Shown in pieces: positions 35,189 to 41,128 of a stretch of DNA of 64,000 nt. The DNA comes from Escherichia phage BF15. The translations under genes and the position numbers were made by a program. The stretch lies in sequence record MW822007.1; one strand, given 5' to 3'. The notes beneath the pieces are model-generated. The model saw only the letters and a program-made list of their open reading frames with translations. It was not told where the DNA came from and did not search any database. Positions within the stretch are counted from its first letter, which is position 1; each line of letters begins with the position of its first letter.

Positions 35189-37453
35189 TCATAATTTACA
35201 GGATGAACAATCTTCAGCTTTTGGAGTTTCTATTTCATAATCATCAGTACCAGAACCATCACGGGTATTATGATAATAGAAATTTTTTCCGCCAAAATAC
35301 CAAAAGTACAAAAGGTCATCAATCATTACAGACATTGGAACCTTTCCTTTTGGAAAAATCTGCGGGTCATAATATGTATTCGCTGAAGCTGATTGACACA
35401 CCCATTTCAGCATAATAGCTACCTGCGTAAGATAAGGTTTATTACCTTTCTTAGCTAATTTCCACGTATAATCATAGAGGTCTATGTTATGCTCAATATT
35501 GGGCACGACTTGATTAAAGGAACCCTCTTTTGATTCTTTAACAGAGACTGGTCCACGTGGAGGCTCGATACCGTTTGTACTGTTAGAAACTTGGGAAGAT
35601 GACTCACATGGCATAAGTGCTGATAATGTGCTATTACGGATGCCAAAGAGCTTAAGGTCTTCCCGCAGCGCCGACCAGTCACAAACGTATTTTGGAGCTG
35701 CGATTTGGTCAATCTTTTTATTGTACCAGTCGATAGGTAATTCGCCTCGAGACCAACGAGTGTCTGAATAATATTCGCAAGGTCCTTTTTCTTTGGCGAG
35801 CTTAATGGATGCTTTAATGAGTCCATACTGTAATCTCTCAAATAGTTCATGTGTTAAATCGTTAGCATCTTCATAAGAAGCAAAGTTACTTGCCAGCCAA
35901 GCTGCATAGTTAGTAACACCTACGCCAAGGTTTCGACGTTTTTTAGCTTTTTCTGCTTCAGGAACTGGATATCCTTGGTAGTCCAAAAGATTATCAAGAG
36001 CGCGAACTTGGACTTCTGCCAATTCATTAATTTTATCTTGGTCTTGCCAATCGAAGTTATCCAACACAAATGCAGACAATGTACACAATCCAATTTCGGC
36101 ATCAGGACTATTCACGTCATTTGTTGGAATAGCAATTTCACAGCACAAGTTACTCTGGCGAATAGGTGCCTTTTCACGAATAAACGGAGTATAGTTATTC
36201 GTATTATCAATGAACTGTACATAAATCCTTGCTGTTCCTGATCGTTCAGTCATGAGCAATTCAAACAGTTCACGGGCTTTAATACGCTTTTTACGAATAT
36301 TAGGGTCTTTTTCTGCGGCTTCATATAATTCACGGAAACGGTCTTGGTCTTTAAAATAAGAATAATAAAGCTCGCCACCCATTTCATGTGGACTAAACAA
36401 AGTAATGTAATCGTTCTTTCCAAAACGTTCCATCATCAAATCATTCAGCTGGACACCATAATCCATATGACGGATACGGTTTTCTTCTACGCCTTTGTTA
36501 TTTTTCAAAACGAGAAGATTTTCAACTTCCAAATGCCAAATAGGATAATAAGCAGTAGCAGCGCCGCCACGAATTCCGCCCTGTGAACATGATTTAACAG
36601 CAGTCTGAAAATGTTTCCAAAAAGGAATAACACCAGTATGACGCACTTCACCTGTGCCAATCTTAGAACCTTCGGCACGAATCATACCAACGTTAATGCC
36701 GATTCCAGCTCGTTTGGAGATATATTCAACAATTGAAGCAGAAGCTTTGTTGATAGACTTCAGCGAATCACCTGCCTCAATAACAACGCATGAACTAAAC
36801 TGCCGAGTTGGAGTACGACAACCAGCCATAATAGGAGTTGGCAATGAAATCTGTCGAGTAGATACTGCTTCATAAAAACGAATAACATGTTTTAATCTAT
36901 CAACAGGTTCATCTTGATGCAATGCCATTCCAATAGTCATAAATGCAAACTGTGGAGTTTCATAAATTTGACCAGTGGTTTTATCTTTAACTAGATATTT
37001 TTCTTTTAACTGCATCGCCCCGGAATAAGTAAATTCCATATCCCGCTCGTGCTTAATTTTTGATTCTAAAAATGTAATTTCTTCTGCTGAATATTTTGAC
37101 AACAGTTCAGGGTCGTATTTACCTTCATTTACGCAGTAAGAAATATGGTCAATAAATGAACGTGGTTCATATTGCCCGTAAACATGCTTACGAAGAGCGA
37201 ACATTAAACAGCGCGCAGCTACATATTGATAATCAGGCTCTTCAACTGAAATAGAATTCGCAGCAGCCTTAATTACAATGGTTTGAATGTCATCAGTTGT
37301 CATTCCATCACGGAGATATGATTTAATATTTTCATATAATTCATAAGGATCTACAGATGTTCCTTCAGCTGCCCAAGATAAAACTTTAATAATTTTTTGT
37401 GGGTCAAAGCTTTGAGAAACACCGCTACTTTTGATAACATTAATTAATTGCAT
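35189..37453 (-). CDS. nrdA: ribonucleotide reductase large subunit NrdA
   Basis: 754 aa; class I RNR large subunit with C-terminal Cys pair. Confidence 0.95.
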   Translation of the reverse strand: MQLINVIKSSGVSQSFDPQKIIKVLSWAAEGTSVDPYELYENIKSYLRDGMTTDDIQTIVIKAAANSISVEEPDYQYVAARCLMFALRKHVYGQYEPRSFIDHISYCVNEGKYDPELLSKYSAEEITFLESKIKHERDMEFTYSGAMQLKEKYLVKDKTTGQIYETPQFAFMTIGMALHQDEPVDRLKHVIRFYEAVSTRQISLPTPIMAGCRTPTRQFSSCVVIEAGDSLKSINKASASIVEYISKRAGIGINVGMIRAEGSKIGTGEVRHTGVIPFWKHFQTAVKSCSQGGIRGGAATAYYPIWHLEVENLLVLKNNKGVEENRIRHMDYGVQLNDLMMERFGKNDYITLFSPHEMGGELYYSYFKDQDRFRELYEAAEKDPNIRKKRIKARELFELLMTERSGTARIYVQFIDNTNNYTPFIREKAPIRQSNLCCEIAIPTNDVNSPDAEIGLCTLSAFVLDNFDWQDQDKINELAEVQVRALDNLLDYQGYPVPEAEKAKKRRNLGVGVTNYAAWLASNFASYEDANDLTHELFERLQYGLIKASIKLAKEKGPCEYYSDTRWSRGELPIDWYNKKIDQIAAPKYVCDWSALREDLKLFGIRNSTLSALMPCESSSQVSNSTNGIEPPRGPVSVKESKEGSFNQVVPNIEHNIDLYDYTWKLAKKGNKPYLTQVAIMLKWVCQSASANTYYDPQIFPKGKVPMSVMIDDLLYFWYFGGKNFYYHNTRDGSGTDDYEIETPKAEDCSSCKL

Positions 37454-37770
37454 AAGTCCTCAACTTGAAAATCGTCTTTAAACAATCGGTTAACTATATG
37501 AGCTATTATATCACCATGACACGGCTTTGGTTTACATGTGCATCCTAGCCTCATTCCACGTAAAGGCTCTAAATGTGCTTTAGTTATTTCTCCGGATTTA
37601 ATTCGACGTATAAAATCTTTTTTGAATAATTCAATGGCAGCCTCCCGGCTGCCAGCATCTTTACCGACGTAATTTCCCCAAAATGTACCACGGTGAATAT
37701 TAACATCAAAGTCGGATTTATATTTATTCACTACCCGGCATAGACGGCCCACGCTGGAATAATTCGTCAT
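37444..37770 (-). CDS. hypothetical protein with C-x-C…PCHGD motif (nrdA.1 position)
   Basis: 108 aa; motif [12 protein letters not shown]. Confidence 0.5.
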
Positions 37771-37987
37771 ATTGTTTTTCCGTTAAAACAGTAATATCAT
37801 AATAACAATCAGAAGAAGTTTTAACTGTGGAAATTTTATTATCAAAATACTCACGAGTCATTTTATGAGTATAATATTTTTTGCCATAAATGATAATAGG
37901 CTGTTCTGGCCCTGGAACTTCTAACTCGCTTGGGTTAGGAAGTGTAAAAAGAACTACACCAGAAGTATCTTTAAATCGTAAAATCAT
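37724..37987 (-). CDS. hypothetical protein (nrdA.2 position)
   Basis: 87-aa ORF. Confidence 0.45.
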
Positions 37988-38010
37988 ATATCCTCACAAT
38001 TAATAATTAA

Positions 38011-38871
38011 TTACACCGCCATTTTTCCTTTAATAGGAGGGTGTGATTCGTAACCTTTAAGAACGAAATCTTTAGGCCTGAGTTTAAGAACATATTCCAA
38101 TTGTTCTTTAGTAGAAAGATGGCGGAATTTATAAGGCAATCCGCCTATTACCAGTTCACAAAGCTCTTTAGGTTCACGACGTAAAATTTCTTTACATTGT
38201 TCCACGTGATTCATATAGATATGAGTATTACCGCCAGAAAATATCAAATCTCCAGGAATAAGATTACACATCTTAGCTACAATATGAACTAATGCAGCAT
38301 ATGATGCAATATTAAATGGAAGACCGAGGAAAACATCTACCGAACGTTGATACCACTGCAAATCCAAATAGCCATTACGCACATTAAACTGATAGAACAT
38401 ATGACAAGGCGGTAATGCCATATATTTAAGTTCAGCTGGATTCCACGCAGAAACAATTTGACGCCTATCATTTGGTAGTTTTTTAATACGATCAACAACT
38501 TCTACAATTTGGTCTACACCGCCAAAATCACGCCACTGTTTTCCATAAATTGGACCAAGTTCACCACTATGATATCCTAAATCTTTTGCTTGATTTTCGT
38601 AATTTTCATCCCAGACTGTTTTGCCTTGAATTAATGAATCATGTTGAATTAATCGCAAATCATTGACATTTGTGCTTCCTGATAAAAACCATATTAGCTC
38701 AGCGATGCAAGCTTTCCAAGCGAGCTTCTTAGTCGTTACTGCAGGAAAACCTTTAGTTAAATCCCAGCGTAATTTAGTACCGAACAAAGCAATTGTTCCT
38801 GTGCCTGTTCGGTCATCGGTTTCATAGCCGTTTTCAAAAATGTCTTTAATTAAATCTTGGTATTGTTTCAT
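38011..38871 (-). CDS. td: thymidylate synthase (uninterrupted, no intron)
   Basis: 286 aa; active-site region ALPPCHMFYQF; single continuous frame. Confidence 0.95.
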   Translation of the reverse strand: MKQYQDLIKDIFENGYETDDRTGTGTIALFGTKLRWDLTKGFPAVTTKKLAWKACIAELIWFLSGSTNVNDLRLIQHDSLIQGKTVWDENYENQAKDLGYHSGELGPIYGKQWRDFGGVDQIVEVVDRIKKLPNDRRQIVSAWNPAELKYMALPPCHMFYQFNVRNGYLDLQWYQRSVDVFLGLPFNIASYAALVHIVAKMCNLIPGDLIFSGGNTHIYMNHVEQCKEILRREPKELCELVIGGLPYKFRHLSTKEQLEYVLKLRPKDFVLKGYESHPPIKGKMAV

Positions 38872-38916
38872 TTAGTACCTTATATAAATTATAATACATT
38901 TTATGAAGCTAAATAA

Positions 38917-39276
38917 TCAATACGGTTTAGCATCAAATTTTCTTTCGATTTCAGGAGTGAAATATAATTCTTTACCACGCTTGGAAAAGCGACCAATAAT
39001 ATGATAATTATTCTCATCAAACGTGATATTGCCAATATCCATAGCTTTCAACCAAATATCGATATTTCTATCCAGCTTTATATCAAAATTCCAATACGGA
39101 GAACTATTACCGAAAATACTGCAAGCGGATTCAGTGAAACAACTGCTATAAATCTTGTCTTTAGGAACTACTAATTGATAGACACCTTTAATAAACTGAG
39201 GACCCTGCCATTTTGGTTGTTTCGCGTCTTTTTCCAATAGAATAGGGTAATAATTAAAGCTCATATTTTCCGCCAC
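38917..39276 (-). CDS. hypothetical protein inserted between frd and td
   Basis: 119-aa ORF with no recognisable motif occupying the frd-td junction. Confidence 0.5.
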   Translation of the reverse strand: MAENMSFNYYPILLEKDAKQPKWQGPQFIKGVYQLVVPKDKIYSSCFTESACSIFGNSSPYWNFDIKLDRNIDIWLKAMDIGNITFDENNYHIIGRFSKRGKELYFTPEIERKFDAKPY

Positions 39277-39284
39277 GCGTTATT

Positions 39285-40111
<827 letters not shown>

Positions 40112-40119
40112 ATTATCTC

Positions 40120-40455
40120 CTAATATAAAGGATCGGGAACATATCCACTGGCTTTAATCATTTTAATTAACGTTAACATTCCTTTATTAACTGCTCGTGA
40201 GATTTCATCAAAAACTTCATCACTAAAAAGTTCTAACACACCCTTCTGAACTTTTAATTTACATCCAACGATTTCGTCATCGCCTATAATAAATTCATTT
40301 CCGCCAATTCCACCGAAAAACTTAATTACACCAGTTAACTGTCTTCCACGAGAATATGGGTCGTGTGATAAAGTAATATGAGTCACCCCAGGTACAGTTT
40401 TAAATTGGCAGCGGATGTTTACTTGGGCAATTCCAGTTACGTGAATGTCAGACAT
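40120..40455 (-). CDS. hypothetical protein (frd.x position)
   Basis: 111-aa ORF. Confidence 0.45.
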   Translation of the reverse strand: MSDIHVTGIAQVNIRCQFKTVPGVTHITLSHDPYSRGRQLTGVIKFFGGIGGNEFIIGDDEIVGCKLKVQKGVLELFSDEVFDEISRAVNKGMLTLIKMIKASGYVPDPLY

Positions 40456-40465
40456 AATATTTTCC

Positions 40466-40708
40466 TCAAACAGACTTTTTCACAATTTTCCAATCAGCTT
40501 TAAACTGATCGACGTCAGAATGGTAAATCCAGAATCCTGCGCTTTCTCCATCCTCATAAAGAGGGCATCCATCGCATTCATCTTCCCATCCCATATCACG
40601 CAAAAGACGTTCAGCTTTTTCAACAAGTTCAGAATCTTTACCGATGATATTAAAATACCATTTACCCCTAACTTCTGAATCTTTAATGCTCTGACGTTGT
40701 AATCTCAT
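40466..40708 (-). CDS. hypothetical protein (frd.x position)
   Basis: 80-aa ORF with early promoter upstream. Confidence 0.45.
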   Translation of the reverse strand: MRLQRQSIKDSEVRGKWYFNIIGKDSELVEKAERLLRDMGWEDECDGCPLYEDGESAGFWIYHSDVDQFKADWKIVKKSV

Positions 40709-40726
40709 TTTATTCTCCTTAGTTGA

Positions 40727-40763
40727 TAGGGTAATAATATCACACTACTACCCTACTGTAAAC
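40727..40763 (-). promoter_or_regulatory. early promoter with 7-bp inverted repeat flanking the -10 element
   Basis: Forward TAGGGTA…TACCCTA bracket ATAATATCACACTAC; GTTTAC -35 on the minus strand. Confidence 0.45.
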
Positions 40764-41128
40764 TACTTTTTGAAAGTTTTTCGCAAAAGTTCAATGATTT
40801 CATCTACATTGTTTTCGTCTACAATGCAATGAATTTTTGTTACGCCAGAAATCTTGTCTTCGACTTCATCTTCTTCAGAAATCGGTTCTTTATACTCGCG
40901 GAAACAATGAAATTCGTCTTCGCAGACGTTGAAGTAAAAATGCTTTCCATTTGCGCATTCAATGTGTTTTATTACTCTAAATCCATCAGCAGAGAAAGCT
41001 TCTTTAACTTCAAACCATCCACCATTTTCTTGAATAATTTTAACTATTGATGAATTAGAACGTGGGCGATAATTAATAAATGTATTAATAAGTCTTGGAA
41101 CAAGCTCATACTTTTTGCCAATATACAT
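40763..41128 (-). CDS. hypothetical protein
   Basis: 121-aa ORF. Confidence 0.45.
   Translation of the reverse strand: MYIGKKYELVPRLINTFINYRPRSNSSIVKIIQENGGWFEVKEAFSADGFRVIKHIECANGKHFYFNVCEDEFHCFREYKEPISEEDEVEDKISGVTKIHCIVDENNVDEIIELLRKTFKK

Follow-up and report, generated by a model that had tools for sequence, protein, structure and literature searches.

The short reading frame that separates frd from td in Escherichia phage BF15 is almost certainly a real and conserved gene of the phrog_1928 family. It is the same gene as td.1 of phage T6 and RB32ORF229c, already catalogued and not a new insertion. Among the sequences searched, the family is restricted to T4-like phages and is found only between frd and td. 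The overlap of these two genes in T4 is, in the records compared, a minority state, T4 itself being the exception among its relatives. A broader account, combining a real phrog_1928 gene, an accessory partner of the dTMP cycle and a lateral re-acquisition in Tequatrovirus, is plausible, and as a whole we give it slightly less than even credence.

The frd-td junction of phage BF15

The stretch of DNA analysed, hereafter the window, comprises 64,000 nucleotides of the phage genome (MW822007.1). The block of genes that includes frd, the open reading frame (ORF) and td lies entirely on the minus strand (Table 1), and the gap 38872..39284 corresponds to the whole interval from the td start (38871) to the stop codon of frd. 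The initial annotation described a frame of 119 amino acids between the two genes with a spacer on either side, and both the ORF listing and the coordinates bear this out. The frame counts 119 codons from a GTG at 39276 and 115 from an in-frame ATG at 39264, and ends with a TGA at 38917-38919. Its translation begins MAENMSFNYYPILLEKDAKQPKWQGPQF and is the same as that first quoted. In alignment, the GTG coincides with the ATG that opens a 64%-identical homologue in the metagenomic contig L021, and the internal ATG is the start used by most GenBank records and by T6 td.1. From the frd stop, the spacer measures 8 nt to the GTG and 20 nt to the ATG, and 45 nt separate the stop of the ORF from the ATG of td. 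The td gene of the window is without the group I intron and I-TevI, whereas in T4 an interruption of 1017 nt follows nt 549 of td.

Table 1. Position of the features discussed, in the window and at comparable loci
Feature	Position	Strand	Basis or remark
td.1-like ORF (phrog_1928 family, short A-type paralogue)	38917..39276	minus	ORF listing, phrog_1928 match
frd, dihydrofolate reductase, 193 aa, upstream neighbour	39285..39866	minus	94.8% identity to T4 Frd
td, thymidylate synthase, 286 aa, downstream neighbour	38011..38871	minus	uninterrupted
Left junction TAAATGAAATAACGC	39277..39291	minus	includes frd stop TGA (39285-39287)
Right junction TAAATGAAACAATAC, td start codon 38871-38869	38860..38874	minus	second direct-repeat copy
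45-nt ORF-td spacer	38872..38916	minus	alignment, promoter scan
Tandem A-type and B-type loci	L001, L003-L006, L020, L021, L026-L039
Unrelated junction ORF, Dhakavirus	L015 2079-2285		phrog_9550
Unrelated junction ORF, Lazarusvirus	L016 2037-2273		phrog_5068
Unrelated junction ORF, Krischvirus JSE	L017 2176-2445		phrog_16012

A promoter scan detected a sigma-70-like site, TTGATT-18-TATTAT, extending from 38920 in the stop region of the ORF to 38891 and matching at 9 of 12 positions. It is a candidate only, because promoter and terminator sites were no commoner in this region than in shuffled sequence. The 45-nt spacer also carries GCTTCA...TATAAT, which resembles a MotA-type middle promoter of T4. 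In phages carrying td.1, td might possibly have a promoter of its own. A search with Rfam yielded no RNA family across 37000-41000.

On the other side of td, the minus strand holds nrdA.1-like (108 aa) and nrdA.2-like (87 aa) ORFs (37444..37987) with a mutual overlap of 47 nt, an arrangement shared with T4. A DUF4326-family protein takes the slot between td and nrdA in several other genera.

Identity and selection

The initial annotation considered the frame unannotatable, a view that the catalogues contradict. The window protein matches phrog_1928 of the PHROG collection with an E value of 9.5e-36, its residues 8-115 aligning to positions 2-125 of the 126-position profile. In the T6 record AY262134.2 the gene is called td.1, and it bears the name RB32ORF229c in RB14 and RB51. 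T6 Td.1 occupies the same position between frd and td and is 99% identical to the window protein (S6 in the window, N6 in T6). The gene was thus already known by name in T6 and as a hypothetical protein deposited in hundreds of T-even genomes, the hundreds of Tequatrovirus entries being 97-100% identical to the window protein.

A megablast search with the region matched 548 records, 355 of which span the ORF, including T2, AR1, PP01 and RB phages. At a protein identity of at least 90%, the ORF is present in about 360 Tequatrovirus records, T2, T6 and RB14/RB51 among them. T4 (NC_000866) has no ORF at this place: the 4 nt ATGA belong both to frd (145109..145690) and to td, which runs from 145112 downward. 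With a 100-nt probe across the T4 junction, an uninterrupted junction of this type was found in only 35 records, many of which are T4 itself; those listed include several T4 records together with RB55, HY03 and ECO07P1. The initial annotation was therefore right that frd and td abut or overlap in T4 and mistaken in taking this arrangement as the norm. Conservation of the ORF in all relatives including T4, a situation it had also envisaged, is true of most relatives and fails for T4.

Comparisons by the Nei-Gojobori method gave dN/dS ratios of 0.018 with T6 (11 synonymous and 1 non-synonymous differences), 0.048 with phage PHB12 (31 and 10, respectively) and 0.08 with the metagenomic homologue of L021. 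By tblastn, the window protein was recovered in 580 phage records, of which 362 show at least 90% identity (Tequatrovirus) and 218 less than 60%, the latter being phages of Klebsiella, Enterobacter, Citrobacter, Serratia, Erwinia and others. By these substitution patterns, td.1 truly encodes a protein, one on which purifying selection acts strongly. A chance or decaying frame without function might be suspected in an AT-rich genome with many incidental ORFs, all the more as T4 does without this one. The probability of such a frame is virtually nil in view of dN/dS ratios of 0.02-0.08, of a protein whose motifs stay invariant between genera even at about 17% identity, and of a confident predicted fold, and the selection and conservation data rule it out.

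A family located between frd and td

Beyond Tequatrovirus, homologues of phrog_1928 directly follow frd in Kanagawavirus (CIP9), Jiaodavirus (JD18), Moonvirus (Merlin), Winklervirus (CHI14), Kagamiyamavirus (EcS1), Marfavirus (Potts1) and Gelderlandvirus (NP4), as well as in Serratia phage Muldoon and several metagenomic T4-like contigs. In all, at least eight T4-like genera other than Tequatrovirus have a family member in this frd-td slot. Synteny was assessed by running the family HMM along with Frd and Td searches on all ORFs of each fetched locus. With X denoting a family member, the order frd-X-(X)-td on one strand was found at every locus that contains a member and both flanks, about 30 loci in a count where some genomes were fetched twice. 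The order holds for members that are 17-25% identical to the window protein, and it is kept in L008 and L009, where identity to the proteins of the window falls to about 30% for Td and 32-35% for Frd. Outside Tequatrovirus, the starts and stops of family genes overlap their neighbours by 1-23 nt, pointing therefore to translational coupling. With the family HMM, the 64-kb window yielded this single copy, and the T4 segment yielded none.

Most of these genomes outside Tequatrovirus carry two tandem paralogues between frd and td, a short A-type followed by a long B-type (loci in Table 1). The B-type (CIP9_060, Merlin gp259, EcS1 gp191) shares with the A-type the frd-td slot and the pattern QKKW...HGIY...GN...GRFxKxGxE; it is set apart by some 20 inserted residues (ALVxQGxxPTIxxYKRNPxxY) and by its place immediately before td. 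Both the B-type and the distant member P0058 match phrog_1928. The window, like Tequatrovirus in general, has the A-type and no B-type. The most divergent genomes (L008, L009, L011 and L012) possess a single copy of the long type, which suggests that the long form is ancestral.

In a HMMER search of 1.84 billion representative proteins, 48 matches were obtained at E <=1e-3, 46 of them stand-alone proteins of 95-148 aa, and none of the proteins searched had the family domain fused to DHFR, TS or any other domain. Two very long proteins, P0025 (3337 aa) and P0064 (3675 aa), gave 18 and 11 weak stretches of similarity, respectively, and were judged spurious, probably composition or repeat artefacts: P0025 is mostly made of He_PIG Ig-like and NHL repeats, and P0064 shows only weak, scattered similarity to unrelated families of Pfam. 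The C-terminal half of the family may still be distantly related to an Ig-like repeat.

Other T4-like phages do without the family. The frd gene is directly joined to td in the T4 group, in HY126 (a record without assigned genus), in Gaprivervirus VR20, in Pseudotevenvirus RB43 and in Tulanevirus Aes508, and the junction holds small, unrelated ORFs in Dhakavirus, Lazarusvirus and Krischvirus JSE (Table 1). The junction tolerates cargo in general, yet its usual occupant is the phrog_1928 family. Since T4, Mosigvirus, Gaprivervirus and others live without it, td.1 is dispensable.

The td gene itself has neighbours of another kind in two of the phages named above. A free-standing homing endonuclease gene on the opposite strand overlaps the 3' end of td in EcS1 (L005 3515-4273, minus strand), and a homing endonuclease gene resides inside a split td in Aes508 (L019 2716-3462), which makes td a recurrent target of mobile endonucleases.

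Predicted fold and database labels

An AlphaFold2 model built with 63 family sequences reached a pLDDT of 88.7 and a pTM of 0.82. The predicted elements are strands at residues 10-16, 31-38 and 66-68, a helix at 72-80 and strands at 84-86, 90-100 and 103-108. Td.1 is accordingly predicted to be a small beta-barrel of about 115 aa with one helix and the element order of an OB-fold. W23, G31, G95, K99 and G101 are invariant in the 63 family members and L13, Y33, F97 and F106 nearly so, and the window protein has all of these residues; for R96, invariance is limited to a set of 21 sequences. The family has conserved aromatic and basic residues and a near neutral to mildly basic pI (median 8.45).

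The initial annotation recognised no motif in the protein, and library searches agree. No match was found in Pfam, NCBIfam or PADLOC for the ORF, the B-type paralogue or the 63 family members. In PADLOC, whose library covers defence systems and not counter-defence, the A-type, the B-type and the distant member hit 0 families at E values up to 1. Sequence searches of the PDB with the single protein and with two profiles gave best E values of 0.06-0.6, all to unrelated proteins, and Foldseek against BFVD matched only uncharacterised proteins of T4-like phages. In the searches run, this confidently modelled fold is without a clear solved relative, and inspection of Td.1 for a catalytic or nuclease signature found none.

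Several database labels nevertheless assign an activity to the ORF: "putative homing endonuclease" (BASEL phages), "dihydrofolate reductase" or "putative dihydrofolate reductase", and "putative glucose-1-phosphate adenylyltransferase". None of the searches run backs any of them, and these misleading labels are corrected here. The first deserves discussion, as the ORF could be a homing endonuclease or the remnant of a mobile endonuclease cassette. Besides the label itself, a variable presence beside td, a known homing target, a short flanking repeat and a GIY-like tripeptide, in KGVYQL, that aligns with the GIYQI motif of I-TevI all speak for it. Yet hhalign gave the family profile a probability of 0.7% against I-TevI, over an 11-residue GIY-like stretch only, and of 0.2% against MobE, and no GIY-YIG, HNH or other nuclease family of Pfam was detected in the 63 members. 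At 115 aa the protein is too small, and its predicted fold is nearly all beta, unlike the alpha/beta GIY-YIG domain. The stable synteny across many genera is not the sporadic pattern of a homing gene, and both the strong purifying selection and coexistence with the I-TevI intron in 79 records count against it. An endonuclease origin is thus very improbable, and endonuclease identity is effectively refuted by the profile, fold, size, synteny and selection data.

The 79 records that combine td.1 and the td intron, including T6, RB3, RB5-10 and PST, were identified with a composite probe made of the ORF and the 5' end of the T4 intron, for which full coverage was required. They also lead us to reject the idea that the ORF and the td intron with I-TevI are mutually exclusive through co-conversion loss during homing.

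Origin of td.1 in Tequatrovirus

The initial annotation pictured a small gene dropped into a conserved operon. As a general statement this fails, given that the same slot is occupied in at least eight further genera. For Tequatrovirus it may hold: td.1 was probably re-acquired laterally there, by insertion at an ATGA-type frd/td junction. Several features of the sequence together suggest such a secondary acquisition. Only in Tequatrovirus do spacers, and not overlaps, set X apart from its neighbours, and the short paralogue alone is present there. The closer genera examined, Dhakavirus, Gaprivervirus and Mosigvirus, lack the family, with the exception of the recombinant Mosigvirus PHB12. Between the window and L021, X is 64% identical while Frd is only 48% identical, against seven other cross-genus comparisons in which X (26-43%) is less conserved than Frd (44-54%) in 7 of 7. 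The DNA similarity between the window and L021 begins at the start codon and stops at the stop codon.

A direct repeat, the last of these features, brackets td.1, with TAAATGAAATAACGC at the frd stop and TAAATGAAACAATAC at the td start; the two copies have 9 perfect bases in common and agree at 12 of 15 positions. The left junction was compared by alignment with T4, T6 and PHB12. Its copy of the repeat contains a mini-frame of three codons, ATG AAA TAA (39288-39280), in frame with the ORF, which resembles the T4-type td start, ATG AAA CAA, and reads like a fossil td start. A single crossover between the repeat copies would restore the ATGA junction of T4 exactly, and the repeat consequently fits both a gain by insertion and a loss by repeat-mediated deletion. 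We infer that td.1 of Tequatrovirus can be lost again through recombination between these flanking repeats of 9-15 nt. Matches of at least 12 out of 15 arise about 8 times per window by chance, which makes the repeat suggestive and not proof of insertion, and stop/start overlaps of the form TAAATGAAA are common in this genome.

Phage PHB12 (L022, MK524178.1 36173-37329), classed as a Mosigvirus, illustrates how the region can be exchanged. The 3' end of its frd is Tequatrovirus-like and is followed by an X of 93% amino acid identity, while the 5' end of its td matches that of HY126 and not those of the T-evens. The switch lies near the td.1/td junction, and 30 nt are missing from the td.1-td spacer. 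This mosaic shows an inter-genus exchange by recombination near the frd-td junction.

Possible functions

The function of td.1 or phrog_1928 is not discussed in the papers found. The preferred reading of its genomic context is that Td.1 may be a non-catalytic partner of Frd and Td in the phage dTMP cycle, a proposal that we make tentatively and regard as doubtful in its own right. A single early transcript would yield Td.1 along with Frd and Td; Td.1 would bind Frd, Td or both, or for example tether the two within the dNTP-synthesising complex, and it would act as a dispensable, non-catalytic accessory. The proposal builds on synteny and translational coupling. Conserved gene order combined with translational coupling often marks proteins that interact physically, and an order conserved for so long would point to such partners here. 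Three observations weigh against it. Unrelated small ORFs are found at the junction in other genera, and because phrog_9550, phrog_5068 and phrog_16012 members also settle there, the slot may simply tolerate insertions. No fusion to DHFR or TS exists among the 1.84 billion representative proteins. Lastly, T4 and whole genera have lost the gene, which implies that the dTMP cycle works without td.1.

A stronger form would make phrog_1928 a third component of the thymidylate cycle, a beta-barrel adaptor that couples DHFR and TS or docks them to a replication-linked dNTP complex. This reading is rather unlikely. If true, it would explain the lock-in between frd and td and the translational coupling across deeply diverged T4-like phages, and the loss of the gene by T4 would explain its lack of study.

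The initial annotation raised a role in host range or anti-defence, for which no test run gave support. Under that hypothesis, td.1 would be an anti-defence or host-takeover gene whose product inhibits or sequesters a host factor or a defence sensor, the frd-td junction being only a permissive early slot. A family confined to this slot at about 30 loci and over a very deep divergence would be unusual for shuffled accessory cargo, and dN/dS ratios of 0.02-0.08 argue against an arms-race diversification. No PADLOC model matched, from a library of defence and not counter-defence systems; the median pI of 8.45 is not acidic as in DNA mimics; and the gene is not mentioned in the papers found. We hold this role to be improbable.

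Alternatively, Td.1 could be an OB-like nucleic-acid-binding regulator that acts on ssDNA or mRNA, for instance by tuning the translation of td, frd or nrd messages, or it could link the dNTP-synthesis enzymes to the replication fork beside gp32. These two forms are jointly quite unlikely.

Relation to known systems

The present analysis adds to the record that, in much of the T4-like group, the family keeps to the frd-td junction alone, often in two copies and with translational coupling, that td.1 is under strong purifying selection and that the overlapping junction of T4 is a minority state. The family escaped study because T4 lacks the gene. Should the partnership with Frd and Td prove true, an extra player in dTMP synthesis would have been invisible to research on T4 alone.

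Comparison with known systems helps to place td.1. GIY-YIG homing endonucleases such as I-TevI and the Seg proteins have in common with it the td neighbourhood, td being the target of I-TevI, and a GIY-like tripeptide. Lacking any domain match and differing in size and predicted fold, td.1 is not a member of this group. OB-fold nucleic-acid-binding domains (RPA/Teb1 OB, S1 and PriB/SSB) may be structural counterparts, the predicted Td.1 model having the element order of an OB-fold. A functional analogy only may be drawn with the junction peptide of the bifunctional DHFR-TS of protozoa and plants, which is likewise an element located between DHFR and TS and made with both. The bifunctional enzyme is one linked polypeptide, whereas Frd, Td.1 and Td of the phages are separate proteins, with no sequence or structural relation to it.
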